A stretch of DNA of 63,784 bases, filler included, from Folioceros fuciformis (Eukaryota), in the NCBI GenBank assembly GCA_049999805.1. It is 10 parts of 10 records of this genome, joined end to end, with 100 filler letters (N's around TTAATTAATTAA, not from the genome) between each part and the next. Parts side by side here need not be neighbours in the genome. Positions count along the whole stretch, not along the records: positions 51,965 to 54,689 come from JBNGIO010001078.1; 9 more parts are not named here. One strand, 5' to 3'. Below, one piece after another: positions 1-61,824 of this stretch. The notes below the pieces were generated by a model. The model saw only the letters and a program-made list of their open reading frames with translations, had not been told where the DNA came from and searched no databases. The stretch's first letter is position 1; each line of letters starts with the position of its first letter. The translations under genes and the position numbers were made by a program.

Positions 1-2000
1 GGTGCCTCAATCTCCAATGGTTGTGGCTGAGTGTAAAAGAGGGGGTGTGGCTCTTGGCCTCCTGTTCTTTCTCCCCCCTCCCCTTCTTTTTCTTTTCCTT
101 CTTAGGTGTAGGTGATTTAGCAATTGTAGGATGGGGTGATGAAAGGTGGTTTGTGAGTTGATGAAGGGGCTGCAAGCAGGGCTGTGAGTCATGAGTAGGA
201 GCCTGGATGAAGGAGTCACCAACGTTGAGGTGATTTGCCCTTGGCTGGAAGGAAGTGTGATCAGCAGTGGTAGGACTTGGGCTCAACCAATGAAACATGA
301 AGACAAGGAAGGGCATGGGTGAGACAGAGGGACAGGTGGACTCCACTTCCACCCCTCTAGTACCAAGGAAGGCCCCAAGCAGGAGAAGATACAATTTTTG
401 TGCCTTGCAAGATAGAGGAGCCAGAGGCAGCCCACAAGAGGCAGCCCGACAGATGTGGAACGCACGCCCGACAAACAAGAGATCTTGGGGACACTTGACC
501 CCAGGACAGAAGCTAACGTGCATCTGTCACTTGTGTTGCCTATAGGACAAGAGGAGTCTCTCCCTCCTATGCCTTTGGAGAGCAGCCCAGCAATTGCACC
601 TCAGTCAACCACAAGGAAGAGACCAGCTGATGAGGTGACAGCACAAGAGGATGAGAAGGATAATTGCAGCCAGCAAAAGATCAGAAGGTTCCCTCCCAAG
701 GACACAGCTAGCGGAGGACTATCAGGAGTGAGGTCAGACCCCACTGTTTAGACTTAGTTATGATGGCTTGTGGTGATTGGGCCTAAATGGTAGGCCCATT
801 AAGACTTCTGACACCGAGTCACTTTCTAGGCAAGCCTAGGTCAATGAGCCAAGAGGTTCATTAATTTAGTTATTTTTTATAGTATTGACCTAAGGAGAGA
901 GAAAGCGTGAAGAGAGAGGGGATCTCTTATAAGGCTAGGAGAGTTCCTTGAACTCATTTTGTCACTTGCCAACCTTTAGTCATCAGCTCTTGCTTCTTGA
1001 GCTCCAGATGTGCCTTGTTCCAGCTGACTGATGTGGTCGAGACCTCGTCTCCCTTTCCGGTCAGATGTTGCTAAGTTGCAGATGTAGATGTGGATGAGGT
1101 TGGGGTTTGCTGGCTGATGGTGCAAGTGTCCATGGTTGTTGTCCCTAATGTTCCCGCATGCTAGTCTTGCTAGTGTGTTGCTGGCCAAGGAGACTTGGTG
1201 CCTGGTAGGAGGTAAGGCTAGGTTCCATCAATCTGTGGCGTAGCGTAGGAGAGTTCTGACCTGCGGAGGGGAGAACAAGTAGAGGAGTAGAGGTGAAGGT
1301 TGTTGTAGTGTTTAGAGTTGCAAGGCACCGAGAGTGCTCAAGGCCTGGCAAGGAGCCTGAGGTAGTATTTCCTCAAATCCGCCCTAATTGGTGTGTGTGT
1401 TTCTGACGTCGTGCTGGAGGATGTGACGGGGGAGGGTTGCACCCTGATTGTAGTTTCCTCCTGCAGGTTCTGACTTGTGGTTTCCAGTACTTGGAGTGAG
1501 GGGGCTGTAGGCAGTACCAGCTACAGCAGTTGAGAGTGTGAAGATCTATCCATAGGTCGGCAGTGGCGACCTGAACCATTGGCAGGGTAGGAGTGACAGT
1601 CCTAACCTGTCTGCGGTTGGCAGGTCTGTTGGAAGTTGAGTAGTACCTCTGACCAAAGATAGCAAGGTCAGAGTAATTTGGATGGAAGAGGGATGTGAGA
1701 CGTGAGAAGTGTGAAGTGGGAGGTTGTGTAGTTAGGTCAGGGGTGACAGACCTGATCTATCTGCAGCTAGACGAGTCCTGACTAGGGGTCGCAAGGTCAG
1801 GAGTAGAGGGTCAGTAGTTGGCTATAAGAGTTATGAAGTTGTGGAGTTCGGAGAAGTCCTCTCATACACTACAGATTGAGAACACCAATCACTCTTTGGT
1901 GGGATCGAAACCCATTCTATACTAACGACAGTGGGATAAGTGTGGCCACTATAGGACGGAGCTCAGGGAGCCCCACTCCCCGAGATCCGGCCGCCACAGT

Positions 2001-2195
2001 GCTGGTAATCACAACTCAAGGCACATGGGCAACCATGTGCTCGCCTATTTACGATTAGTACCCATGTGCGTACTACACTTATTACCTAAAGAAGGTTGGT
2101 GCTGGTAATCACAACTCAAGGCACATGGGCAACTATGTGCTCGCCTATTTACAATTAGTACTCATGTGCGTACTACACTTATTACCTAAAGAAGG
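2001..2195. repeat. Direct tandem duplication, 100-bp period, two near-identical ~95-bp copies
   Basis: gctggtaatcacaactcaaggcacatgggc...attacctaaagaagg at 2001 and again at 2101 with ~3 mismatches. Confidence 0.9.
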
Positions 2196-2249
2196 AAGCT
2201 TATACTTCATGGTTGTTTGCTATTCTGTTAACACGAAGTATGTTGTGGA

Positions 2250-3122
2250 GGTCACACCTAGCGGCAATTCTAGCTTAATGCGGGTGACATGAATAGCTCC
2301 TTGGCAATTTGGTAATCATTCCAGAAACCCAGCTCCACCTCACTTGCCTCGTCTTCGATTGGCCAGTTCACATGCTAGGGTGCATGAGAGGTGAGTGATC
2401 GCACAAATATCCACACCACCTTAGACACGGTTGATCAGCCTTGGTGTACTTGGGTCAATTGACTTATCTACACCAAATAATTTGGTAGCTACTTTGAGAG
2501 AATCTCTAGTCCCCAATCTTATGAGAATCGTAGCTACTTATTTGGCAACATGCAGCTTACGGTTTAGCAAGAAGGTAATGAGACTTGGAGGAGGACGTTT
2601 AGTAAGTCCAAAGCAACAACATGACAAATGTAATTGAATGTGGTTGGGAAGACTCTGATAATCTCTCTCCAACGGTCAGGATCTCCACTTGGAACAATTG
2701 TCATGAACTTTGCTGACCAATGAAGTGACTGTGGCTTGATGTAGGACATGTTTACCCTTCTCTCGGGTACAATTGAGTTGCTGTGCATAGTAGCAGCCAC
2801 ATTGTGGTGAGGAAGGTGTCTTCCTCATCTGCCACTTTCATAGAGGAAGAGGAGCACAAATCTGAATATTTCATAGGCAATAAGCTCGCTTGTAGATGTA
2901 GCTATGACTTTTGTGTAGTGTGCGCTTGGGATTGTGAGCATAATGACCATCATTGATGCGAAAATTGGGTCCTCTTTGACGATTAGCCATGATTGCATTG
3001 CTATCAGCAAAGAACCGGTTGTGACGTGCACCACCAAGACTAGCTTGTCGTCTTGGTGAGTGCCCTTAACACCCGCGCTTTTTCGCCACGTGCACAATGT
3101 TATGTGAATATGGAAAGTGCCC
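2250..3122 (-). mobile_element. Decayed PIF/Harbinger (ALP1-like) transposase remnant
   Basis: Minus-strand pieces RWREIIRVFPTTFNYICHVVALDL and, after a frameshift, KLHVAK*VATILIRLGTRDSLKVATKLFGVDKS resemble the Harbinger F-R-M-x-x-x-T-F-x-Y-I-C / LSVEKQVAIAL.RL..G.S...V...FGV region; possible terminus ...aaagtgccc|TAA at 3122. Confidence 0.55.
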
Positions 3123-4104
3123 TAAAACATTTTTGTCCAAATCGTTTTGGGGACACCTGGAAAGCAACTCTAAGCGCCCCATATCGAAGAAAACATTTTT
3201 TTAAAGTATTTGCATCCTAAGCTCCTTACATTGAGCATAGTCAATGTGCCCTTCTCATGGCTCTCCCATGTTAAGCTCACTATATTAAGGATAGATGGAG
3301 TGTACTTATGTAGATTATAAGCTGCCGACAATAAGGATAACCCTACACAAATATTTTTATTAAATAGTAATATAGATAATTATTGAGTTTATTTATATTT
3401 TAAAAATAATTATTTCATCATCATCCTCGTTAACCCTGCAGACATCGGGATACGGTACTATCATTCTTGCCCGATTTCATAGAGCATGGGAGCCGATCTC
3501 CAAAGGTAGGAGAGATTAAAATGCGTAAATTAATTGCTGGGAATGCTGCTGAAGCATCTGATTGCCGTCAGGTGTGTGGAATCGCACCTCAACGACCTGG
3601 GTGTGATTGGCCCATTCTCATGTCAGCCCCGGTGGGCAGGACGACTTGTGGTCCTTTTGGCTTGGCGGGCATCGCCTCAGCACTCGGAGGTCACCTGTGC
3701 ACGGGACTCCCATGTGAAAGCAAATGACTTCCTTCCCGCTTTACCATTCACGTCTGAGAATAGCGGCCGAGCCGAACCGAGCCGAGCTTCCTGTGCTTGG
3801 GAACAGCAAAGCACGACCCACGACGTGGCGTACCGGCTGCATTGCCGCGGTGGGCGAGGCTCGCTTTCGCGCCATTGCGTGGCGTCAGTGAACGCCGAGG
3901 ATCGAAGCCGATGCTGCTGCGCTTAAAGCTTCCCGTGTCCCCATTTTCTGTACTCTATCCGCCGTGGTGTATCTCCGCAGTCCTCTGCCGGCTTCGTCCA
4001 GCGTCACGACAAGGCCCTGGAGATTGCGACCTCAGCTAGCTGGTGGATGGAAATGCAGGTGTGAGCTTCTCTCGCTCTGGATCCGGATCCTCTTACCGCC
4101 CATC

Positions 4105-4629: not shown

Positions 4630-4729
4630 NNNNNNNNNNNNNNNNNNNNNNNNNNNNNNNNNNNNNNNNNNNNTTAATTAATTAANNNNNNNNNNNNNNN
4701 NNNNNNNNNNNNNNNNNNNNNNNNNNNNN
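4630..4729. other. Artificial contig-joining linker (N44-TTAATTAATTAA-N44)
   Basis: Identical 100-nt spacer with six-frame stop core. Confidence 0.98.
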
Positions 4730-11893: not shown

Positions 11894-11993
11894 NNNNNNN
11901 NNNNNNNNNNNNNNNNNNNNNNNNNNNNNNNNNNNNNTTAATTAATTAANNNNNNNNNNNNNNNNNNNNNNNNNNNNNNNNNNNNNNNNNNNN
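11894..11993. other. Artificial contig-joining linker
   Basis: N44-TTAATTAATTAA-N44. Confidence 0.98.
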
Positions 11994-14932: not shown

Positions 14933-16593
14933 TGAACGCCGTTACAGGCCGGTATGTCATAACGTGGTCCATGCAGCGGGCCGTGCCAGCCTTTCATCAA
15001 TCATTTAGCAGGTTCCGAGAAGGGGGTTAGGTCGGGGCCCGGTACGGGGCCGCGTTTATTAAGCGCATCATGGTCTGCCGCCGATGATGATGCGCGTTGC
15101 ACATGTTCCCGGCGGCCCCGTTCTGGTGCACGGAACGGAGTCGGCGCAGATACGGCCCGCCGTTGTCCAGGCCTACCTTCACACGAAGCTGCCTGCCTGC
15201 CTGCCTGTTGGGCCGCACCAGCAGCAGCCCGTGTTGTCGCGGTCCTGGGCGGTTCAGATCCTGGTCCTGGTCCCGATCGGACCGCGCTCCTCTTCTCTCC
15301 ACGGCATGTTGCCGATGCTGGTGCCCGGGTTCCCAGGATGCGACGAAACTGGCGGGCTGAGCAGCCTGGAACAGGTCCAGTGTGATGGGAATTCGCGTCT
15401 CGTCTCTCGTCCCGTCTCGCTCTCACCTGTCCAGGGAAGGAGAGGCTGGCGTGGCCTGCCTCTGCCGTGGCCTGTAGCTGCTGCTCATCCAGCTCATCGT
15501 CTGCACCGCACTGCTCTGCACTGCGACATTGCTGTTTTATCTTTGTGTCTGGGAATGCCCCCAGTTTGGCTGCCTCCGTCTCTTGTGTGTCGCCTAGCAC
15601 GGCCTCCAAGCCCTGCTTGCTTGGCCTCATGTGCCGACTTTTTTATCTCCACGTGAACAGAGGAGGAGGAACAGGGCCGCAGCAGCCAGAGCACAGCAGC
15701 AGCAGCAGCTGCTGCAGGTGAAGGTGAAGGTGAAGGAACAGGAGCAACACGCGGCAGGAAAGAGGGTGGACGGCACCACCTCCCTTCGCTTGCTGATATT
15801 CCTCTTGCTGCCCCAAGCCCCTTTTGCACCAGCCATAGCCATAGCCACAGCCGCAGCCTCGAAGAGCGAGCTCCTCCGGCTTCCACGAACACATCTCTCG
15901 GCTGGCCTCGGATCTCGCATGTGCAGCTGCCTGCTGCTGGTCGTTGAATGATGCAGGCAGAGCCAGGGCTCACAGATCGGGACAAGTGAGAAGTTTCTTG
16001 GCCGGCTGTTTGCGTTTCTGTTGCTCTTGTGTTCTGCCTGTGTGGTGATACCGGTGTTGCGGGATGCGGAGCTCTGGTCCGGGGTTGACGTCGTCGGGCC
16101 ATTTACTCGTCGCAATCCGGGTTCTTGTTCAGGGACTGCAGCGCGGTGTGGTGTGGTTTTAGGCAGTCTGTTTGCGCGGTGAGCGGCAACGGAAGTGAGC
16201 AAGCAGATGGTGCACTGTAGATTATCTCCAGTGCTTGGCTGGAGGAAGCGGGTGTGGAAGGGGAGGTGTTACCAAAGGCCTCTCAGGCTTCCTTGACTTG
16301 AATGTTCGCCGAGCCGTTTTGCGTGCCTCTCATGCGGTTGCGCTTGCACCACCGTCAGTCTGGAGCAGGAGGCGCAGAAAATGCGGCAGCCAAACGTGCA
16401 GCACCGCTGGGACGCCTTGAAGAGGTTATCGCCGCTGCCTAGAGACGTGTCAAGTAGCGGCAGCGGGTCGCATACTTCGAATGTGCAGTGCTCTAGAGGA
16501 GACAGCAGGAGCTGCCAGATCTGATGCAAGTTGCTGGGACGGGGTGCTGCATTTTCATATCCCGTGGAGGAGCCGTCTGGCCTACACTCGATC

Positions 16594-19500
16594 ATGAGTG
16601 ATAGAGGAGGGCATAATGCATCCACTACGACATGGCGTCTGATCTCCCTCTCAATTCTCTCGCTCTGCGTGCTGCTGGAGCTTCAGCTGGTTCAGCCTGC
16701 CAGCGTTTCCGCTCCGGCAGACGCTTCCGCCCTCCTAGACTTCAAACAGGGGCTGTCTGATCCGACGGGCTTGCTCTGGAACTGGGGTAACTCATCTGTC
16801 CCTCTCTGCAATTGGACGGGAGTCTCCTGTGGTCCTGGACAGTCGCAGCAGGTTGTCTCTCTGTATCTTCCCCGGGCCCTGCTCAGCGGTACCATCTCGC
16901 CAGCGCTTGGACAACTGTCTGCGTTGAGAGCTCTTGATCTCTCTTCCAACTCTTTGTATGGCGAAATCCCTCCACAGCTTGCCGAGTGCTCCCGGCTCAA
17001 GGCGATCAGGCTGGGCAGCAATGAGCTTACTGGCTACATCCCGGACGAGCTTGCAACTCTTACTCGCCTAGAGGTTCTCGATCTGAGTTACAATCACTTC
17101 GCTCCTGCTGCGGTTCCTGCTGCTCTTGCGAGGCTTACTAAGCTGTTGGAGCTCAATCTTGGGGGCACGAATCGCACTGGTCAGATTCCGCCCGCTTATT
17201 TCGGCGTCAATTTCAAGAGCCTTCAGAAGCTCGAGTTGCCGCAGAACAGGCTTGATGGGGAAATCCCTATCGGTGATGATTGGGTTTGTGGCAACCTCAC
17301 GTACCTGGACCTCAACAACAACTCTCTCACGGGCCCCATCCCTCCGCAGCTGGGTACGTGTGCCAGTCTCACCTTTCTGGATCTGAGCACCAACAGACTC
17401 TCTGGTCCCATTCCGGAAGAAGTAGGCAACCTGCTCTCCCTGGTCTTCCTCTGGGCCTTCACCAACAACTTGAATGACAGCATACCGTCATCTCTTGGCA
17501 ACTTGAGGAACTTGGAGAGCATCCGTCTTGGAGAGAATCAGCTGTCAGGTCCTATACCCGATGAGATTGCTGGATGTACCAGTCTCAAAACTCTGGGATT
17601 TGCATCTGCAGGGTTGTCGGGTCAGATCCCTCCTGGTTTGGGAGGCCTGGAGTTTCTTGAAGAGGTTCGGTTGTACAACAATCGTCTGACAGGCTATTTG
17701 CCCCCAGAGCTCGGGAACTGTAGCCGATTAAATGTCTTGGCTGTGCACAACAACTCCATCGGAGGGAATATACCATCGGAGTTCGGCTCTCTCAGAAATC
17801 TCTCTACTCTTTATTTGTATAGGAATCAGCTTCAAGGTCCTATTCCGGAGTCGCTGGTGAACTGCACTGAGCTGACTGGGCTTGATTTTTCTTACAATCA
17901 TCTTGGGGGTGAGCTACCCGATGACATTGGCAAGTTGGTCAACCTCCAAGTGCTCTCTCTTTTCAACAACAACATCACAGGAACCATTCCTTTATCCTTG
18001 GTCAATCTTGTTGAGCTGCAGACTCTGGATTTGTCTTACAATGACTTTTATGGTACCGTGCCACCAGAAATAGGGCAGATGCCCAAGCTTCTTAATCTTA
18101 TACTGGCAGGGAACTCGTTTGAGGGTATTCTGCCGCAAGATCTTGGACAGAACAGTGTCCTTCAGAAGCTGGACGTATCCAACAATAATTTGTCCGGTCT
18201 CATCCCTCCTGGAGTTTGCCATGGGGGCAATCTGTCTTCTTTGGTGCTTCTCAACAACTACTTTTCAGGAGAAATCAATGGGCCCATTGCAAGCTGCACG
18301 TCACTAGTTCAAGTGCGCCTGTCCAACAACAGCTTCACTGGTTCTGGCCCCAGTGATCTATCTTCTTTTGGTCAGCTGTACTGGATGGACCTCTCCAACA
18401 ATGGGCTTGAAGGATTATTTCCTCGAGGGCTCTCAAGTCTGAAGCAGCTGGCTGCCTTGCAATTGTCAAGTAACAACTTTACTGGTGAACTCCCATCAGA
18501 GATAGGGGAACTGACCTCCTTACAGTTATTCAGTGCTGCCAATAATCTCTTTACAGGAAACATCCCACCGGAGATAGGAAATCTGCAGAAGCTCCTGGGT
18601 TTGAATCTTGCTGACAACCTGTTGACAGGGCCTATTCCGGAGGAGATTGGCAATCTGACAGAGCTTTCCTACCTGTTCTTGCAGCAGAACAATTTGAATG
18701 GCTCTATTCCTCAGGCACTGACCAGGTGTGAGCGCTTGCTATCTCTGGACCTGGGGAACAATCATCTAAGCGGACCAATTCCAACAGACATTGGAAAGAT
18801 GGTGACTTTGCAGTATGGCCTGAACCTTACTCAGAATCTTCTCTCAGGCACCATCCCGTCTTCGTTGGGAACCCTTGTGAATTTGCAGGTTTTAGACCTT
18901 TCTCACAATGAGCTGCAGGGCCAGGTTCCCGGTACATTGACGAATTTACAAGCTCTTATCAATTTCAGCTTTGCAGAGAATCATCTTTCTGGCCCCATTC
19001 CTGGTACTTCGCTGTTCACTACTGCTCCTATAAGCTCTTATGCTGGAAATCCAGGTCTCTGTGGGATGCCACTTCCGCCCTGTGCAGATCCTGGGGCCTC
19101 AGGCAGGGGAGGTAAAGCTAAGAGTGGACTGGGTCTGTCCTTGGGAGCTTTGATTGGGGTCATCTTTGCTGGTGTGGCTGCTATCTTGATAGCAATTGTA
19201 TTTCTCTTGTTCTGGAAGAGACAGTATGACGATGAGGACTACAAGTTGAGCCACTCTATCAGTGGCCGTCGGATGGGTTCCATAAACTCCTCAGTGAAGG
19301 ATTTCGAAGGCAGCACCTCAGGCCTCACATATCGCGACATCATGGAGGCTACTCAAGGTTTAAGTGAGCGGAATGTGATCGGGTCTGGTGCATACGGAAC
19401 AGTTTTTAAAGCAGTCTTGCCCACCGGACAGATCCTTGCAGTGAAAAGAGTCATCCTGCCAATGGACGGGTTCACGGAGAACAATTCCTTCAATGCTGAG

Positions 19501-20354
19501 GTTCGGACTCTGGGACAAATCCGCCACCGGAATCTTGTCCGCCTTATTGGCTTTGCAACCAACATGAACCTGAACCTGCTGCTGTATGAGTACATGCCAA
19601 ATGGAAGTTTGGGAGAAGCTCTGCAGCATCCTGATGTTAGGCTGGAATGGAGTTCTCGGTATAACATAGCCCTGGGAGCAGCACAGGGTCTAGCTTATTT
19701 GCATCATGATTGCCATCCTCCTATCATTCATCGTGACATCAAGTCGAACAACATCCTTCTGGATTCAGAACACGAAGCTCATATCGGGGACTTCGGACTT
19801 GCCAAGTTGATAGATGTCACTAAGGATACGCAGTCCATGTCTGCAATCGCTGGCTCATATGGATACATAGCACCGGGTAAGACGCCGGACTCGTCTCTAA
19901 GACTGTATTCGTGTGTCATGTCTGAATCTGTTCATAGCTCCTTTTTGATGCTGCTTACTTCGTTATCTTGACTGTTGAGATCTTTGCTGCAGAGTACGGC
20001 TTCACAATGCGGGTGACCTTGAAGGGTGATGTGTACAGTTTTGGGGTAGTCTTGCTGGAGATAGTGAGTGGCAGGAAGCCAGTGGTTGATGAAATGACGG
20101 ATTTGGTTTCGTGGATCAAAGATAGCATCAGGAAAAATCAAGGGCCAGAAGGAGTGCTGGATTCCCGACTGGATGAGATGGAAGGGCCTCTGAGACGGGA
20201 GATCCTTCTCGTTCTCAAGATTGCCCTGTTTTGTACCAAGGAGAATCCTGAGGAGAGACCAACAATGCGAAACGTTGTGGAAATGTTGATACAGGCACGC
20301 GATCCCAACAGGTCCCCATCCATTGTGCGGACATCGCTTAGCGACTTCATTTGA
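16594..20354 (+). CDS. Leucine-rich repeat receptor-like kinase (subfamily XI-like), two exons 16594-19876 and 19993-20354
   Basis: Signal peptide, LRRNT (CNWTGVSC), >20 plant LRRs, GNPGLCG cap, TM helix, kinase GSGAYG/HRDIKSNN/DFG; single GT-AG intron 19877-19992 at YIAP|E. Confidence 0.95.
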
Positions 20355-21405: not shown

Positions 21406-24012
21406 TCAGCACTGTTCGGCGTATATGTCGTCGAGCTCGCCGTAGGACAGATGTTTCCACGTCGTGTCCACCAAGTTGTCCAACTCGCCCAGCATGCCCG
21501 TTGCTTTATGCTGGCCTTCGTTGTTGTCGGACGACACTCCTGCATCCCGCATCATTTGCCTAATCTGCTCCTCGTCTGCCTTCCTACCAGCCATGCAATA
21601 CATGCTGGCCATAAGGCCATAGGCAGCATCATTTCCTGGCTCCAGCTTAACTAAGCTGTCAAAGACCCGCCGTCCAAGATCCAGGTTGCCATGGCTCTGG
21701 CATGCCACCAACACAGTCATCCACGTTTCTGCTTCAGGTTGGAAGGGCATGGCGCTAATCAGGTCATCTACTTCAGGTAGGTTGCCTGCCCGACTGAGAA
21801 TCTCGACCATGCAGACGTAGTGTTCCTTGCCGTGTACTATCCCAAACTCCTGATCCATGTTCCGGAATATAGAGTAACCTTCGTCAACCAGGCCAGCCCG
21901 GCAACATGCTGAGAGAACAGAAACCATGGTCGCTTCATTCGGCTTCACCCCTTCCTCTTGCATCTGCTTGAACAGCTGCAAGCCTTCCTCAGCTTGTCCG
22001 TGCAGACTGCAGCCTGATATCATGGCATTCCATGACACCACATTTCTTCTGGACAGCTTGTTGAAAACCCTTCGAGCGTCATTTAGGCTCGCACATTGGA
22101 CGTACATGTCAACGAGAATGTTCCCTACCTCCAAGTCGCTGCCCAGCCCACTTGTAGAGATCCTGGAGTGAAAGTGCTTTCCTTGCTCCACGGATGCTAT
22201 GCTCGAACATGCTTTCAAACAGTTCACGAAGGTCGTCTTATCAGGTGACATACCTTCACGCTGCATTTGCTGGAAGAGTCCAAGGGCTTCGTCACCATCC
22301 CCTGCTTCCACATAGCCTTCAATCATGATGTTCCATGACGCCAGATCTTTCTCCGACATGCCATCAAAGACATTGACTGCCTCCTCTTGGCACCAGCACT
22401 TCATGTACATGTTAAGCAATGCATTGCTTAACACCTTATCGATGACCAAACCACCCTTTGTAAGCTCACCATGAATGCGCTTCCCCTCATCTAGGGCTAA
22501 AAGGATCCCACACGCATTCAAGACGGCTACATACGTGAACTTATCTGCAGTAACACCCTCCGCGTGCATTTGCTGAAAGAGCTCAAGAGTTTTCAAAGGA
22601 TGTCCATGACGGACATTGGCGGTAAGCATTTCATTCCACGACACCAGCTCTTTCTTCGCTAATTTGCTAAAAATCATTCGCGCCTCTTCAAGGCTTCCAC
22701 ATCTTGCGTACATCTCCAAAAGTGCAGCTGAAAGAAGTGGATCCTCCTCGAATCCTAAATCCACAACTCGCTCATGTATGTCCCTGCCTTCAGCCAGGGC
22801 TTCTACTTTGGCGCATGCTTTCAGAACAGCGGCATACACGGAAACATCTGGCTCCCCTCCTTGCCGCTCCATTTCCTGAAACAGCTTGAGAGCTTCCTTG
22901 CCTTGATCAAGGTCTGCATGTGCTTTGATGATAGCTTGCCATGACTGTGTGTCAGGGTCAGAAATCTTCTGAAACACTTCGTTCGCCTCCACCAAGCTTC
23001 CACACTCCGCAAATAGCCGGATCAGAGTGTTCCGAATGTCCAAGTTCCCATCATACTTGCTACTCGCAAGCAGTCTTTGCATTCGCTTGCCAGCTGCCAA
23101 ATTCTTGCTTCCGATGCCCTCTTCCAGCAGTCTTAATTCATCCTCAGCAGACCCGCCCTCGTCTTCACTCTCCACGTCTTTGAGAGGCTCACTGCCCCCT
23201 TGCCCACCCACAGCATTCTGCAAACCCTCACCCCCTCCTGCATTTCCTTGAGCAGAGGTTTCACTACCGACAGAGGTAGAGGGATACAAACAAAAAACAA
23301 GTCATGCATAGAAATGAACGTCGCAAACACACGACAACAGCGACCGAACGAAACACGAACACCAGACTGGCAAGACAGCATCTGTTTGCAGTACCACACC
23401 TGGAATTCTGCCCTTGGGATTCCTTCGTCTTCGGAGCATACTCAGGACGATACTCCGCCCTGAAGACTCGGCCCGGTGGTGTATCGTGTATCTTCAACGT
23501 GGCCAACCTTGCAGGAAGCCAGCGAGGGTTGTAAGGGTGATCAACCCACATTGCATCCCCTCCTTGCCAATGCCGAAAGTCTGGATGCCTATGGTCCCTC
23601 TGAGGACCAGCCCGCGTTTCCCACATTAGCAAAACACAGAACAGAAATCCGGCATCGAAAATTTAGGTCGCTGATTAGGTCACAAGCTCCTGCATACCTT
23701 GCTGTACCTAAAATCCCAATACAGATCAGGATTGGCGAAGAGTTTCAACCACAACTGCTCTGTGTACGTTTTCCGGTCTGCACCACGAGCACAAATCGAA
23801 GACTGAGCTCCAATTTCTCACCCCTTCAGGCAAAAATGCCTGTTTTAAGGGAGTCAGATTCACTCACCAACCCTGACGCCGGTTGTGGTGCAATGCCGGG
23901 TCTGTTGACAACCCAATCCCGTCTCGCCAGCTGCAATCAGTGCGACCGCGGCACGCCAAAACTCGAGAACTGGGTGTCCACCCTGGAATGTGCGGCGGCC
24001 GATGAAGGACAT
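21406..24012 (-). CDS. PLS-class PPR protein with E-domain-like end and an N-terminal OSB-type PDF motif; exons 24012-23868, 23777-23698, 23599-23400, 23263-21406
   Basis: PLS repeats (VVSWNAMISG, YARCGSLEEAR, HYVCMVEILSRAG, MPFQPEAETWMTVLVAC), no DYW; upstream exons joined in frame through GT-AG introns give a transit-like peptide MSFIGRRTF... and EQLWLKLFANPDLYWDFRYSK|RDHRHPDFRH. Confidence 0.85.
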
Positions 24013-27783: not shown

Positions 27784-27883
27784 NNNNNNNNNNNNNNNNN
27801 NNNNNNNNNNNNNNNNNNNNNNNNNNNTTAATTAATTAANNNNNNNNNNNNNNNNNNNNNNNNNNNNNNNNNNNNNNNNNNNN
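27784..27883. other. Artificial contig-joining linker
   Basis: N44-TTAATTAATTAA-N44. Confidence 0.98.
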
Positions 27884-35033: not shown

Positions 35034-35133
35034 NNNNNNNNNNNNNNNNNNNNNNNNNNNNNNNNNNNNNNNNNNNNTTAATTAATTAANNNNNNNNNNN
35101 NNNNNNNNNNNNNNNNNNNNNNNNNNNNNNNNN
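35034..35133. other. Artificial contig-joining linker
   Basis: N44-TTAATTAATTAA-N44. Confidence 0.98.
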
Positions 35134-35771: not shown

Positions 35772-35901
35772 AGCACATAGCATGAGAGTCTGCTGTACAT
35801 GTGCAACAGCCCCTGGCGAATTTTTTTCAACTCGGGTTGGAGTGTGAGCATCTAGATGTAGAGGACGGCAGGCGCACGAGGGGATTGTATACCGTTTCAG
35901 A

Positions 35902-37890
35902 ATGGCGATCATAGGCATTCATTTCGGTGATGAACGATGCTCCGTTTCTTGCTGCTTGTACGGGAGCGAGATGATAAGGGAAGTGCCTATAAGTCTGTAC
36001 TACGAGAAGGAAGCGGAATCGCAAAATGGCTCCTGCTCCGACAAGTATAAGGTTTCAGCATGGGGCCAGGAAGCAAACTTGCGTCATGGACGAGACTTGG
36101 CAGCAGAGGCGACGTCGTCGGAAGTAAGGCGCGGCGTGTATGTGGAGAATTTTTGGGGGCATCTTAGCTCGGGCCAGGCGACGTCCCAGATGTGGTGGTG
36201 GCAGGGGGACCAAAGACGTGCAAATGCAGGCGTAGGGGACATTCCCCAAGGTCTTTCACTGGTTACCGTTCTCACGGACTACTTCACTAAGCTCTCTGAG
36301 TCTGCCATTCGTTACGTGAACTGTAATGGTCGCGACAGCATTACGAAAGAGTCCACCCAGTGGAGCCTCACTGTGCCATGCATTTGGGACGAGTCTGTGC
36401 TGGAGACAGTGAGCGAGTGTGTGGAGAGAGCGGGCATGACGGCAGGCCCCCTCTGCCCGCCAGAAGTGGCAGCACTGGCAAGCCCTCATCCTGTGTGCTT
36501 TGTTCCGGAGTGGGAAGCCGCAGCCCTGCATTGTTTTAATGGATTCAGATTGGAGCTAGGATCTGAGGTGTTGGTGGTAGATGTCCGGAACCACGTCACG
36601 AACCTTGTCACTTTGAGGGAGTGTGAAGGAGCCTTTAGCTTTGTGGAAGGCCGCACCATCGCCAGTGGTTGTTGTCTCAATGATATGGACGAGAAGTTCT
36701 ACGACAAGGTGCGGGCAAGCATTGACTGCTTCCACGAGCTGGAGAGACACAACCCTGCCATCAGAACGAGCTTGCGGAAGGGCTGGCACAACTTTTGCTT
36801 TTACTTGGACTTGGTTCACAACATACGCTGGTTCAAGTTGCCTGAAAAGCTGCGAAAAGCTTGGAAGGAACACAACCGGTCCCGTCGTGATGACAAACAT
36901 CGCGTGAGGGGACTTTATGTGGATTGGGAGCAGATATGCGGTCCACTGGCAGACAGAATCGTCAATCTGATAAAAGAGTGCCTGAGGCCAGACGTGAAGG
37001 GGTTATGCATAATCGGGGAGTACTCGTTTCCCAGCTACTTGGGGAAGAGAATAGGCTCAGTTTTCGGAAGCAAGTTTGGTGACGGCATGAAGCTCCCGAG
37101 CTATCCCTCCGGTACTATGTGCCGAGGAGCTGTAAATTTCGGCTTAACCCTTGCCTTGCGATCGCCCCGTAGTATGCGCTACGAGTTGGAGCTCCAGAGA
37201 TCGCGTTCGAAGGAGCTGCTCGATCGGGCTGCCTTGGGACGGGTTGTTCAGAAGCAGTTATCCGAGGTCAATGAAAATGTGATGAATTGTGTTGAAATCA
37301 TAAACAAAGTTTGTCTCGAAGCTCTAAGGAGTGTCGATGCGTCACAAGGTCTTGCAGATTTCATCAGGAAAGTGCACACCCGGAGCATTCGACAATCGGA
37401 ACTTTTCATGGAGGCAGTGGCGGCGTTTCAGTCTAGGAAATCGTGGCACAGGCATTCGGCGACGGAAACAGCGCGTAGTGTCACGGAATCCGGGACAGGT
37501 AATTTCCTCCAGGAATGGCAACCGGAGATGTCAGTTCAAAGAACTTCTTACGAGGCAGAGGTGCAAAGAGTGCTGGGGGAGATGATTGAGGCTATGGGTT
37601 CCGCACGCACCTTGAAGGAGAACAATGCAAAGCTAGAGGCTGAGAACTTGGCTTTCCGGGCTCAAGTGCAATCGCTACAAGTGGGGATGGACAGAATCGA
37701 ATCGGAAAAGCAGAGGATTGAGACACAGATAGTATGTTCCATCTGTCAGGACAGACGTCGGAATGTGGTGATTCTTCCATGCCTTCATGCTCAGTATTGT
37801 GAGGTTTGTCTGGCTCAGCATCGTGCTACGAGAGGAACATGCCCTACTTGCAGAGGAGCGATCAGAGGAACTTTGCAACTGTTTTCCTGA
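35902..37890 (+). CDS. Intronless Hsp70/actin-like ATPase-fold (HSPA12-like, degenerate) + coiled coil + C-terminal RING finger protein, 662 aa
   Basis: IIGIHFGD, WSLTVPCIWDE, PEWEAAA, VLVVD, CRGAVNFG; heptad-rich LKENNAKLEAENLAFRAQVQSL; CSICQDRRRNVVILPCLHAQYCEVC...TCPTCR. Confidence 0.8.
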   Translation: MAIIGIHFGDERCSVSCCLYGSEMIREVPISLYYEKEAESQNGSCSDKYKVSAWGQEANLRHGRDLAAEATSSEVRRGVYVENFWGHLSSGQATSQMWWWQGDQRRANAGVGDIPQGLSLVTVLTDYFTKLSESAIRYVNCNGRDSITKESTQWSLTVPCIWDESVLETVSECVERAGMTAGPLCPPEVAALASPHPVCFVPEWEAAALHCFNGFRLELGSEVLVVDVRNHVTNLVTLRECEGAFSFVEGRTIASGCCLNDMDEKFYDKVRASIDCFHELERHNPAIRTSLRKGWHNFCFYLDLVHNIRWFKLPEKLRKAWKEHNRSRRDDKHRVRGLYVDWEQICGPLADRIVNLIKECLRPDVKGLCIIGEYSFPSYLGKRIGSVFGSKFGDGMKLPSYPSGTMCRGAVNFGLTLALRSPRSMRYELELQRSRSKELLDRAALGRVVQKQLSEVNENVMNCVEIINKVCLEALRSVDASQGLADFIRKVHTRSIRQSELFMEAVAAFQSRKSWHRHSATETARSVTESGTGNFLQEWQPEMSVQRTSYEAEVQRVLGEMIEAMGSARTLKENNAKLEAENLAFRAQVQSLQVGMDRIESEKQRIETQIVCSICQDRRRNVVILPCLHAQYCEVCLAQHRATRGTCPTCRGAIRGTLQLFS

Positions 37891-46369: not shown

Positions 46370-46469
46370 NNNNNNNNNNNNNNNNNNNNNNNNNNNNNNN
46401 NNNNNNNNNNNNNTTAATTAATTAANNNNNNNNNNNNNNNNNNNNNNNNNNNNNNNNNNNNNNNNNNNN
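46370..46469. other. Artificial contig-joining linker
   Basis: N44-TTAATTAATTAA-N44. Confidence 0.98.
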
Positions 46470-51864: not shown

Positions 51865-51964
51865 NNNNNNNNNNNNNNNNNNNNNNNNNNNNNNNNNNNN
51901 NNNNNNNNTTAATTAATTAANNNNNNNNNNNNNNNNNNNNNNNNNNNNNNNNNNNNNNNNNNNN
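51865..51964. other. Artificial contig-joining linker
   Basis: N44-TTAATTAATTAA-N44. Confidence 0.98.
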
Positions 51965-52088
51965 TACAGATTCACAGGTTGCCTATCCCACCTACAAGGC
52001 TGAAATCAGATTCCCAGAGTTAACTGGTGAACCAAGACTGCATGCCTTTTAGCTCCGAGAATCAATTTGAGTCACGTAGGTACTCCAG

Positions 52089-52394
52089 GTGAAAGACTGC
52101 CTCCCAGTTTTCTCCACCAGTCCTGGAGATGCCTCTTTGAGAGATGTCGAGGAAGGCACAAACTTCATCATAACTTTGATGGACGCCTTCGTGGAGGGCT
52201 CTGAAACAGAAGATGTCTTGAGCATTCTGACAATCGCCATTGGCAAGGCGACGGACAAGGAGGGCCAAGACAAAACCAAAGACGGGGACTATGAGAAGAA
52301 ATATCAGTGTCCTGAGTTGCGCAGCACACTTACCAAAACGGTATACTGGTCTCGACCACCCCCGACTCCTGTCATGCCTGGCTATAGTGAATAG
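52089..52394 (+). CDS. Terminal exon encoding a caspase p10 (small subunit)-like domain; upstream exons lost at contig start
   Basis: KDCLPVFSTSPGDASLRDVEEGTNFIITLMDAF...EDVLSILTIAIGKA...KKYQCPELRSTLTKTVYW aligns with the caspase small subunit; in-frame TAG at 52077 with phase-0 AG acceptors at 52079/52088 implies an exon. Confidence 0.7.
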   Translation: MKDCLPVFSTSPGDASLRDVEEGTNFIITLMDAFVEGSETEDVLSILTIAIGKATDKEGQDKTKDGDYEKKYQCPELRSTLTKTVYWSRPPPTPVMPGYSE

Positions 52395-53429
52395 CATGTG
52401 GCCAGGGCCTGCAATGCCGTCAATCAAGAGTCAGGTATGCTCTTGAGCTACATGTTGGTGGTCTATTAAATACGGCCCCTGATAAGTCTTGTCACTTCTC
52501 CCTTGCCTGGCATTCTTTCCTGTTTGGCTAGAGAGACCTCTCACAGCGTCCTGATGGGGTGAATAGATGATGCCCCATGGAGGCTATGCGTAGGGAGGGA
52601 AGAACGTGCGCGCTTGCACACACACAGTTGCAGCTCTTGGTTTTCGCAGGCAAGTGAGTGACCCAGATTTGCGGCCTCGTGGCTTTCACATCACTTGCAC
52701 ACTGTCAGGATGTATGTTTCATCATCCCGACCAGCCGAAGCTTGGTCCCTCAGTGAACTGGCGTGTGGAGCTTCTGCCTTCAAGTCAGAGTGACTCGAGA
52801 CAGAATCGAGGGGTAGCTCACTAGTTTGTGTTAACTGGATCTGCTTTGCTAGCGCATCAGCTGTAGCACATGCACATGAACAGGCATAGGCATAGTTTTT
52901 TATCATCCAATCGAGGAGCAGACGTGCGCGCTATGTGTGCCTCCCTTCCTGTGGCCATAAGAGAAGATGACGGAGATGAGAAAGAATTAGCCGCTACAGG
53001 AGCATGGCAGCAGGACAGGCCCTTCTTCACCATGTGTCCCCTGTTCGGTTTGCCAAATCCACAAACCCCGGCGCCTACACGCATGTTCACCTGCAAAAAA
53101 CGCCGTCTACTCGGAATTCATCGTCCAACTCCCGCTCCGTTGCCCGCGGATCCAGATTCCCCACATACACGCGAGCGAGACAAAGGGAGGGTAAGGGTTT
53201 CCGAGCGCGGGGTCTCACCATATTCTTAACATAGCCACTTTGCTTTGCTGACCTATTGGGGTGCAATCCGATTGGCTCGCTGATCGGACTCTGGCTTTGC
53301 TGACCTATTTATTCTTCTACCCTTGTCGGCTTTTGAGTCAAACCAGCCAACACCGCAACCTCGTAACACATTTACTGCATTTTGAACTTAGATACACATT
53401 TTAGGACTACGAACTTTAATTACATATTT

Positions 53430-54689
53430 AGTAACACCCCCTTCGACGGGGTGGGGCAGAACCACAAAGTTAAGAAGCCAAAGCAAGGGTTAGTTTTAAA
53501 CACCGGACACAGCACTAGGCCTCCAAGTAGCCCGCCCTCCTCTTCTAGGAGGACTCTTCTAGGAGGACTCTTCTAGGAGGACTCGCAGCCAGCACCCTTG
53601 CTGCAGCTCTTTATTCAAATCACAAGTCAACAAGAACATATAGAATTGGAGGGCTAGAGAGAACTCCTCATCTTTGCCTAAGCTAGGAGTTTAGCTCTCC
53701 CTTCTCTTGACCTCCTCCCACAGCTCCTTCACAGCACCTTTCATGTGCTCTCACAGCCCAAGCAACACATGCTCTCAAGGCATAGCCCAAGCACCCAGTG
53801 CTCTCAAGGCTTTGAGGAGATACTGATCTCAACTCCACTGTACTGAACTTGCCTTAGCCATTGGCTAGGTCCCCTTTTATACACAAGCTCAAATCACTAA
53901 CTTAGCAACTACTTACTTAAGCACTTACTTAAGCCTTAAGCTATTATTCACTACCTCATACTCTTCCTAGGGCTGCATGCTTCTCATGCTCTTAGTAACC
54001 TGCTCTGCTAAACATGCCTCTGCATGGAGCTTACTTGCTTGGCACTCAAACCAGCGTTGTTACTTCCTCCTCCACTAGGAAAGAATCACAGCCCTCAGTG
54101 ATAACCAATGTAGCAATCATCCAGGAGCCTCTCTGGATATCCTCTAATGTTACCCAAACTGGTGTTGAGATCCCACGCAACTTTATCATATACTGTGGTA
54201 GAGTTCCACGTCTTGTAGCCACGCTACCTTCTGCAAGGAATTCCTCAATCTCCCGCAGTCCTTGATCATGCTGCACTAGGATACTGTACTTCTTCCTGTC
54301 CATATCCTCTTTCTCTTTGCCTAGCACAAATGGTTTCAACATAGATACATGAAACACATGGTGTGCAAAAATCCAATCAGGCAAGTCCAACTTGTAAGCC
54401 ACTTCTCCAATGCGCTTCAAGACAACATATGGACCTCCATACTTTGGTCTCAACTTTAAAGACAATCTTTGGGGTAGTGTGAAATGCTTCAGTTTCACCC
54501 AAACTTTATCCCCAACATTGAAGACAGTTTCTCTCCTATGCTTATCAGCATCTCTTTTGACGAGCTTGAGCCTTGGCTAATATCTTTTGGGCAACCTCAT
54601 GCCTAGCCTTCAATTGCTCAACAAATTGGCGTGGATCTCCAATGGTAGTGTCGAAAACTTCAGCATTTAGCATGGATACCACATCCAAA
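53430..54689 (-). mobile_element. 3' end of a plant Ty3/Gypsy element (integrase C-terminus, chromodomain-like tail, LTR)
   Basis: KLRPKYGGPYVVLKRIGEVAYKLDLP...HHVFHVSMLKPF; LTR-like end gtaacacccc at ~53431; (ctcttctaggagga)x3 at ~53540-53584. Confidence 0.8.
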
Positions 54690-54789
54690 NNNNNNNNNNN
54701 NNNNNNNNNNNNNNNNNNNNNNNNNNNNNNNNNTTAATTAATTAANNNNNNNNNNNNNNNNNNNNNNNNNNNNNNNNNNNNNNNNNNNN
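54690..54789. other. Artificial contig-joining linker
   Basis: N44-TTAATTAATTAA-N44. Confidence 0.98.
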
Positions 54790-57726: not shown

Positions 57727-57826
57727 NNNNNNNNNNNNNNNNNNNNNNNNNNNNNNNNNNNNNNNNNNNNTTAATTAATTAANNNNNNNNNNNNNNNNNN
57801 NNNNNNNNNNNNNNNNNNNNNNNNNN
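57727..57826. other. Artificial contig-joining linker
   Basis: N44-TTAATTAATTAA-N44. Confidence 0.98.
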
Positions 57827-61724: not shown

Positions 61725-61824
61725 NNNNNNNNNNNNNNNNNNNNNNNNNNNNNNNNNNNNNNNNNNNNTTAATTAATTAANNNNNNNNNNNNNNNNNNNN
61801 NNNNNNNNNNNNNNNNNNNNNNNN
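61725..61824. other. Artificial contig-joining linker
   Basis: N44-TTAATTAATTAA-N44. Confidence 0.98.

Follow-up and report, generated by a model that had tools for sequence, protein, structure and literature searches.

The coding segment at 52089-52391 of the window (the whole stretch of 63,784 bases analysed here, from the Folioceros fuciformis assembly) is, according to its sequence and its modelled fold, a real caspase-type (C14A-like) small subunit, or p10. On balance, it appears to belong to a host-resident family of caspase-like proteases, of which the window holds most likely a 5'-truncated or disrupted paralogue and not a working gene.

The interest of this finding lies in the prevailing view that caspases do not occur in plants. 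The reviews PMC10896300, PMC9104976, PMC11121540 and PMC6895675 present caspases as restricted to animals and plants as having metacaspases only. A full-text literature search brought up no account of caspases of the C14A type in land plants, and the caspase-like family is undescribed so far in the literature searched. It is tentatively proposed, with more doubt than confidence, that a land-plant lineage encodes and expresses complete prodomain caspases with an animal-type Asp pocket beside its metacaspases, through either ancient retention or transfer. If true, this lineage would possess a caspase-based death or immune protease alongside metacaspases. The origin of the plant 'caspase-like' activities that cleave DEVD or YVAD has long been debated. 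If the caspase fold, the catalytic dyad and both arginines of the Asp pocket were united in a family resident in a plant, this question could be tested directly in a bryophyte. Such a family would also bear on the age of clan CD's caspase branch. The locus in the window is probably broken, and its value is that of a pointer to the family. The object of interest is the family as a set of complete caspase-like enzymes, apparently expressed, that are linked to bryophyte data.

A caspase-type small subunit on a short contig

The p10 reading frame belongs to an ORF of 104 aa on the + strand (52080-52394), which stays open up to a TAG at 52392-52394. The initial annotation had described here an animal-type p10 exon in a plant genome, and the reading that it gave of this exon, VKDCLPVFSTSPGDASLRDVEEGTNF through QCPELRSTLTKTVYW, is exactly that of the + strand frame; the Arg codon that it placed at 52140 is indeed there, as AGA. 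The HMM search that it proposed as a check yields a match of the ORF to the Pfam profile Peptidase_C14 above the cut-off (29.7 bits vs 21.4, E 6.3e-07), spanning profile positions 159-233 of 233, i.e., the last third. Comparison of the ORF with PDB by phmmer gives 107 distinct chains at E<=1, the best being caspase-7 (E 2e-05), and the best 60 of these 107 chains are all of the caspase-3/-7 type. In these alignments, the S-L-R of the window falls on the S-x-R of caspase-7 and caspase-3. Against 1.84 billion representative proteins, the best phmmer match reaches E 3.9e-10.

The structure prediction, which had also been suggested as a check, leads to the same assignment. The AlphaFold (AF2) model of the p10 piece has a pLDDT of 80.8 and gives 138 Foldseek matches at E<=0.001. 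All of the matches listed are caspase small-subunit chains, mostly from caspase-7 and -3, also from -8 and -2, which the model fits with TM-scores of 0.66-0.81 at 20-31% identity. Furthermore, 11 out of 13 rows in a p10 alignment retain the Arg of the S-x-R motif, among them all six rows of the plant-like group; P0007 and P0014 do not have it. Pfam, PDB matches, fold and P1-pocket Arg thus agree with the earlier view of this exon as a caspase-type small subunit and not one of metacaspase or bacterial type.

When 13 caspase-type proteins were compared with the window by tblastn, all matches at E<1e-3 were located within 52080-52448, the next best match having an E of 0.063. As the initial annotation had stated, the p20 half is missing: neither the catalytic His-Gly nor a QACxG-like Cys was found by these 13 proteins on the contig, which starts at 51965, or in the whole window. 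When the 104-aa piece was compared with protein collections by word index, neither longer proteins nor those of similar length gave a match, and no relatives were found in viral contigs or in JGI metagenome contigs.

The window consists of ten contigs of 2.0-15.8 kb each, split by nine identical linkers, each made of 44 N, TTAATTAATTAA and 44 N (Table 1). The caspase-bearing contig (51965-54689, 2725 bp, GC 0.484) begins with the first base past one of these linkers. Since the window is a chain of linker-joined contigs, the p10 exon is physically linked only to its own 2.7-kb contig, and inferences from linkage across the nine linkers are unsafe. The sharing of a contig with a Gypsy element, put forward in the initial annotation, therefore holds within these 2725 bp and does not extend to the plant genes of the window, which lie on other contigs; the linkage of the p10 segment to these genes is an artefact of contig concatenation. 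One of the other contigs carries both a gene for an LRR receptor kinase with LRRNT_2 and one for a PPR protein with an E motif, and further contigs carry copia-type reverse transcriptases. These genes and elements indicate that the assembly is at least partly land plant.

Table 1. Location of the features of the window discussed in the text.
Feature	Position	Strand	Remarks
Linkers, nine	4630-4729, 11894-11993, 27784-27883, 35034-35133, 46370-46469, 51865-51964, 54690-54789, 57727-57826, 61725-61824		
Assembly linker N44-TTAATTAATTAA-N44	51865-51964	no strand	parts the caspase-bearing contig from the preceding contig
Upstream segment, non-caspase	51965-52088	+	about 95% alike elsewhere with a different right-hand continuation; earlier taken for an intron
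Caspase-type small-subunit (p10) segment	52089-52394	+	101 codons and TAG stop; Arg of S-L-R at 52140-52142
3'-UTR-like stretch	52395-52874	+	X4 depth 290-350 to 52874, 24-73 beyond; covered by related transcript-like contigs
132-nt GT..AG intron in the 3'-UTR-like stretch	52435-52566	+	spliced out in one X4 contig; retained in the window
RRM-start exon-like piece (RVYVGNLDPRATERELDDEF...)	53091-53221	-	ends at a CAG/GTGAAC donor (slash, exon end); downstream exons absent from the contig
High-copy repeat, probably gypsy 3' LTR	53421-54057	-	directly downstream of the integrase stop; LTR ends approximate
Degenerate Ty3/gypsy integrase C-terminus (SH3_Tf2-1)	54049-54689	-	frame change upstream; reaches the contig end
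Intronless LRR receptor kinase gene	16525-19971	+	with the PPR gene, marks its contig as land plant
E-motif PPR gene	21406-23301	-	with the LRR kinase gene, marks its contig as land plant

No second copy of the caspase-bearing contig is present elsewhere in the window, and neither terminal inverted repeats nor other telling repeats were seen on it. An Rfam scan of the window gave no matches. Elsewhere in the window, an intronless ORF of 680 aa (35848-37890, + strand) has HSP70-12-like proteins from fungi, animals and bacteria as its language-model neighbours, with scores of only 0.78-0.84. Its C-terminus, examined by eye, is a RING-type Cys-rich motif. Such a protein is unusual for a plant contig.

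The rest of the caspase-bearing contig was examined with the help of public sequencing runs. X1 and X2 come from one sample and are guessed to be DNA; X4 comes from another study under the same species label and is guessed to be RNA. The kind of each run is a guess of the tool used, with which the depth profiles agree. On the - strand, the match to SH3_Tf2-1 (54049-54576; 76.6 bits, E 1.6e-21) has a frame break upstream, the reading going on before 54576 in another frame, and no Chromo domain was found in this gypsy tail by Pfam at E<=0.1. Integrase tails of the SH3_Tf2-1 type are not specific to plants. The adjacent repeat at 53421-54057 has a depth of 770-3180 in X1 and 630-2300 in X2, whereas the unique bins at 52875-53329 have a depth of 7-43 in these runs (22-34 over 52966-53329 in X1). 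The repeat is thus about 100 times deeper than the unique parts of the contig in both DNA-like runs.

Between the p10 part and the repeat, the piece at 53091-53221 matches RRM_1 with 15.2 bits (E 0.019), below the cut-off of 20.7, and RRM proteins from PDB with E 0.008-0.05. An X4 contig shows a loose end of 255 nt at 53097 that, by hand translation, continues this exon as an RRM of the SR-protein type. The RRM-start motif presumably resembles that of plant RSZ-type SR proteins. This piece may be a second gene fragment. With its p10 piece, its RRM exon-like piece and its degenerate gypsy remnant, the contig seems to be patched together from gene fragments and a decayed retroelement.

The junction at 52089 and the state of the window copy

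Numerous contigs in X1, X2 and X4 resemble the caspase-bearing contig, at a level of 90-99%. The sampled 31-letter words of the stretch are found at a fraction of 0.31 in X1 and 0.28 in X2. At 52173, 52188, 52264, 52339 and 52341, among other positions, every aligned run contig differs from the window, and the window's own p10 variants occur in none of the run contigs listed. These word fractions and exon mismatches suggest that the runs hold paralogues or copies of another strain and not this exact copy; they also leave the p10 copy of the window and its junction at 52089 without independent confirmation.

The related copies appear, from the run sequences, to be transcribed and spliced in the run of the same species label. 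The X4 depth is 240-760 from the p10 up to 52874, but about 21 in the bin 52420-52510, which lies inside the 132-nt intron, and 20-80 over the 53421-54057 repeat. This pattern, with a high exon and UTR and a low repeat, is the reverse of that of X1 and X2, in which the p10/UTR part has a depth of 20-205. The UTR intron is indicated by a joint 52432->52565 (cut +2) seen in X4 only, together with matching loose ends at 52408 and 52565. This GT..AG joint, corresponding to 52435-52566, and its loose ends point to transcription of related copies from the + strand, followed by splicing. X3, a further run of the X1 sample, left 51965-53420 uncovered, and no RNA dataset is listed on record as containing the stretch.

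In the initial annotation, the p10 exon was thought to follow an intron of 100-110 nt, running from a GT at 51978 to an AG at 52088. The sequences lend this intron no support: the donor at 51978 is a misfit, 51965 is the edge of a linker and 52089-52091 is a breakpoint. The 13 nt that precede the GT at 51978 are unlike the sequence preceding 52089 in the related transcript-like X4 contig. To the left of the junction, 51965-52091 is matched at about 95% by an X1 contig of 299 nt and an X4 contig of 898 nt, both of which diverge from the window beyond this stretch, and the 13 caspase-type proteins show by tblastn no caspase similarity in 51965-52088. To the right, the X4 contig that matches from 52089 onwards carries 111 nt of other sequence before this position, of which the last 30, translated by hand, continue the p10 frame without a stop. 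The DNA-like run X2 has the same last nine letters as this X4 extension, joined directly to 52089. As both flanks of 52089-52091 occur elsewhere in different company, this point is a breakpoint, and the direct joining in X2 suggests an intron-free junction in at least one genomic copy. In the simplest reading of these sequences, at least one genomic paralogue would be continuous here and the window copy would have lost, or been parted from, its 5' part. The junction evidence from X1, X2 and X4 comes from 32 listed pieces out of 1107, so that a bridging record may exist among the others.

Another part of the argument comes from the differences between the window copy and its relatives. Thirteen of 16 listed differences in the ORF, a small subset made of those that the comparison listed, are non-synonymous, versus 78% expected by chance (binomial p = 1.0), which gives no sign of purifying selection on the window copy relative to its relatives. 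The ORF has neither stop nor frameshift, but a frame of this length would still be open in 36% of cases after 24 random changes. The differences from related copies look neutral, and they would fit a decaying fragment or diversifying evolution. The window copy is probably truncated and evolving neutrally.

It is conceivable, if unlikely, that the window copy is instead an undamaged terminal coding exon belonging to a functional gene, with a true 3' splice site at 52088/52089 and a p20 located beyond the contig edge. The AG at 52087-52088 is a usable acceptor, 52089 is in codon phase 0 and an intron running off the contig is possible. The intact ORF keeps all the conserved p10 residues, and the UTR intron is retained downstream, as expected of a genomic copy, but the lack of any excess of silent changes relative to the paralogues does not fit a gene at work. 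The transcript-like X4 contig switches sequence exactly at 52089 and stays in frame, as it would at an exon boundary; however, the DNA-like run X2 joins the same upstream letters straight to 52089. The recurrence of 51965-52091 with another right flank in X1 and X4 and the misfit of the donor proposed at 51978 also stand against an intact exon. A truncated or disrupted paralogue remains the preferred reading of the window copy.

A small family of complete relatives and its host

The HMMER scan of the 1.84 billion representative proteins gave 16 matches at E<=0.001, none of them below 1e-10. A Pfam scan of ten of these 16 matches identified six C14 proteins and four non-C14 proteins. The latter (P0005, P0006, P0009 and P0010) look like compositional matches and were rejected as relatives. 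The nearest relatives of the window p10 are P0001 (43%), P0002, P0008 and P0012, with identities of 38-45%. A later profile search, which returned only four proteins among 8000 scored candidates (P0008 and P0012 not among them), added P0019, a protein of 394 aa that is the full-length form of P0001. P0001, P0002, P0008 and P0019 (source 'lgn') come from run assemblies, and P0012 is a transcript of the hornwort Nothoceros aenigmaticus from EukProt. Names are attached to three of the ten clusters looked up: besides P0012, P0014 is assigned to the ostracod Darwinula, and P0016 bears the label 'hypothetical protein'.

The window and its close relatives have the motifs D-C-L-x-V-F-S, S-x-R-[DN], G-T-x-F, Q-C-P and V-Y-W in common. 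In a maximum-likelihood tree of the p10 (18 rows and 95 columns, with no metacaspase outgroup), the window and five relatives are placed on one side of a branch that has an ultrafast bootstrap of 80 and an SH-aLRT of 78, this split being found in 78% of 200 bootstrap trees. The other side is composed of 11 animal-like rows, and P0007 is a weakly attached neighbour. Two animal-like proteins among the 16 scan matches, P0003 (1011 aa) and P0004 (465 aa), harbour three tandem caspase domains each (three stretches by Pfam) and may be fused gene models.

P0019, P0002 and P0008 are complete, with an N-terminal extension, the p20 motifs, a long acidic linker and a p10. They carry the motifs R-x-G-x-x-V-D (Arg179 position), [N/A]-G/A-H-G and [N/C]-[A/C]-C-R-G. 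The catalytic His-Gly and Cys are present in these three proteins and in P0012; complete relatives thus possess the p20 His/Cys dyad, and a dyad-bearing one comes from a hornwort transcriptome. The N-A-C-R-G variant is also seen in one insect caspase, P0020. The N-terminal region of P0019 (about 90 aa) is modelled as five helices, and its low-confidence segments have mostly a pLDDT <50, so that a death fold is only a lead. No CARD, DED or PYD was found by Pfam in the prodomains of the family (no CARD even at E<=10). Neither these prodomains nor the P0002 C-terminal tail could be given a family by Pfam or NCBIfam. The inter-subunit linker of P0019 (about 240-290) contains tandem repeats of the G-A-E-T-P-x-L-S-L type, and linker length is very variable between members.

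The p10 at 52089-52391 would represent one copy of a small family of caspase-type cysteine proteases of clan CD. In its complete members, a helical prodomain at the N-terminus would be followed by a p20 carrying His-Gly and [N/C]-x-C-R-G, then by a long linker of acidic composition and finally by the p10. The conserved residues and the enzymology of caspases suggest a zymogen that would be activated by prodomain-driven proximity or by cleavage of the linker, and whose Cys and His would carry out catalysis. Since neither of the pocket arginines (Arg179 and Arg341, numbered as in caspase-1) has been lost, an acidic residue (Asp) would be preferred at P1. We infer this Asp specificity by analogy with caspases, the pocket position Gln283 being occupied by Asn or Cys in the relatives while the Arg of R-x-G-x-x-V-D is kept. 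The family would be present in the plant's own genome as several copies that are 90-95% alike, of which at least one would be transcribed and spliced. The window copy would be the one that lies on a 2.7-kb unplaced contig beside a decayed gypsy element.

Host residence had been deduced in the initial annotation from the supposed intron and the shared contig. The intron argument fails and the linkage to plant genes is artefactual, but host residence itself is still plausible on other grounds. The GC of the contig (0.484) is within the range of the other nine contigs (0.418-0.522), and the GC3 of the p10 is 0.574 versus 0.542-0.585 for three genes located on other contigs, two of which are plant-type (LRR kinase and PPR). 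Furthermore, related copies are found in runs of two studies carried out under one species label, eight years apart, and the high-copy repeat is linked to the p10. This support from composition, GC3, linked repeat and two-study copies is circumstantial. Residence in the host is considered reasonably probable, and the caspase-like family is probably host-resident and multi-copy.

The contig could otherwise derive from another eukaryote present in the sample (animal, protist or fungus) and carry the ordinary caspase of a poorly sampled organism, which seems improbable. The contig is small, unplaced and part of a chain of leftover contigs, and its exact copy is without independent confirmation; however, its composition and GC3 match those of the plant contigs, and the DNA-like runs contain its repeat in very high copy number. 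The named matches of known function are all animal caspases and the closest named families are all animal, as an animal source would predict, but the closest animal protein reaches only about 36% identity and the nearest relatives form a group of their own. Ty3/gypsy integrase tails are widespread among eukaryotes and are thus compatible with a foreign contig, whereas the RRM-start exon of the same contig presumably reads like those of plant RSZ-type SR proteins. Apart from run assemblies and one field-type transcriptome, the large protein collection shows no member of the family, and the hornwort relative P0012, as a transcriptome contig, is itself possibly a contaminant. Yet P0012 is the named relative and it comes from a hornwort data set, and related copies are present in both studies of the same species label, eight years apart. 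A host-resident family therefore remains the preferred reading.

Comparison with caspases, metacaspases and paracaspases

For the fold comparison, 48,161 PDB representatives were aligned with the P0019 model, whose pLDDT averages 68 and lies mostly at 84-94 in the protease core. The best matches, 4jj7, 1jxq and 4pry, whose titles name caspase-8, -9 and -3, have Z scores of 27.6, 27.5 and 27.3 with 26-27% identity. They are followed by Sf-caspase-1, caspase-4, Dronc, CED-3 and c-FLIP (Z 22.4-24.5), MALT1 (Z 21.6, 15% identity), AtMC4 (Z 18.4), AtMC9 (Z 17.2), legumain (Z 16.7) and Yca1 (Z 15.4). Overall, caspases give Z 22-27.6 with 19-27% identity and metacaspases Z 12-18.4 with 11-14%. When the P0019 sequence is compared with PDB, the best match is caspase-8 (E 4.5e-09) and the best 60 of 113 matches are all caspases. 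This fold ranking and these sequence matches suggest that the family is caspase-like rather than metacaspase- or paracaspase-like. In language-model features, P0019 is nearest to the clusters of the CARD-bearing Dronc and caspase-4 (0.95), which is a lead only.

That the p10 is a region of a metacaspase, orthocaspase or paracaspase (C14B) mistaken for a caspase is extremely improbable: Pfam PF00656 spans all C14 subfamilies, so that a match to this profile does not by itself discriminate between them, but the best 60 PDB matches are all caspases for the window and for P0019 alike, the P0019 model ranks caspases over MALT1 and metacaspases, and the arginines of S-x-R and R-x-G-x-x-V-D are present. 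The best matches are not C14B proteins, the pocket Arg of the window is of the caspase type (metacaspases having an acidic S1 pocket for Arg or Lys), and for P0019 both MALT1 and every caspase rank above the metacaspases.

The family has the clan-CD caspase-hemoglobinase fold in common with metacaspases (C14B) such as AtMC4 and AtMC9, which are the known C14 proteases of plants, but these fit P0019 less well than caspases do and have only 12-14% identity with it. Metacaspases cleave after Arg or Lys and do not possess the pocket Arg of S-x-R. In the same way, the paracaspase MALT1 has a caspase-like domain that fits the P0019 model, whereas its identity to P0019 is low. MALT1 is Arg-specific and its domain context is different.

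The CARD-bearing initiators (Dronc, CED-3, caspase-4 and -9) are closer. P0019 aligns with caspase-9, Dronc and CED-3 at Z 23.4-27.5, and its five-helix N-terminal region and its language-model score also recall these enzymes; unlike theirs, its prodomain is not recognised by Pfam as a CARD.

Finally, the animal caspases (-8, -9, -3 and -7; MEROPS C14A) share with the family the p20/p10 fold (Z 27.3-27.6 for P0019, TM 0.66-0.81 for the window p10). The relatives also have His-Gly, C-R-G, both S1-pocket arginines and G-[ST]-x-F, and the same layout of a prodomain followed by the protease. However, the identity of animal caspases to the family is only 26-36%, and the family stands apart by a distinct signature (D-C-L-x-V-F-S, Q-C-P, V-Y-W) and by a separate branch of the tree. 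It has Asn or Cys in place of the Gln of QACxG (QACRG) and Leu, Cys or Phe in place of the Trp of S-W-R. Its linker is long, acidic and repeat-bearing, its prodomains are without a CARD, DED or PYD that Pfam recognises, and its source is apparently a land plant.
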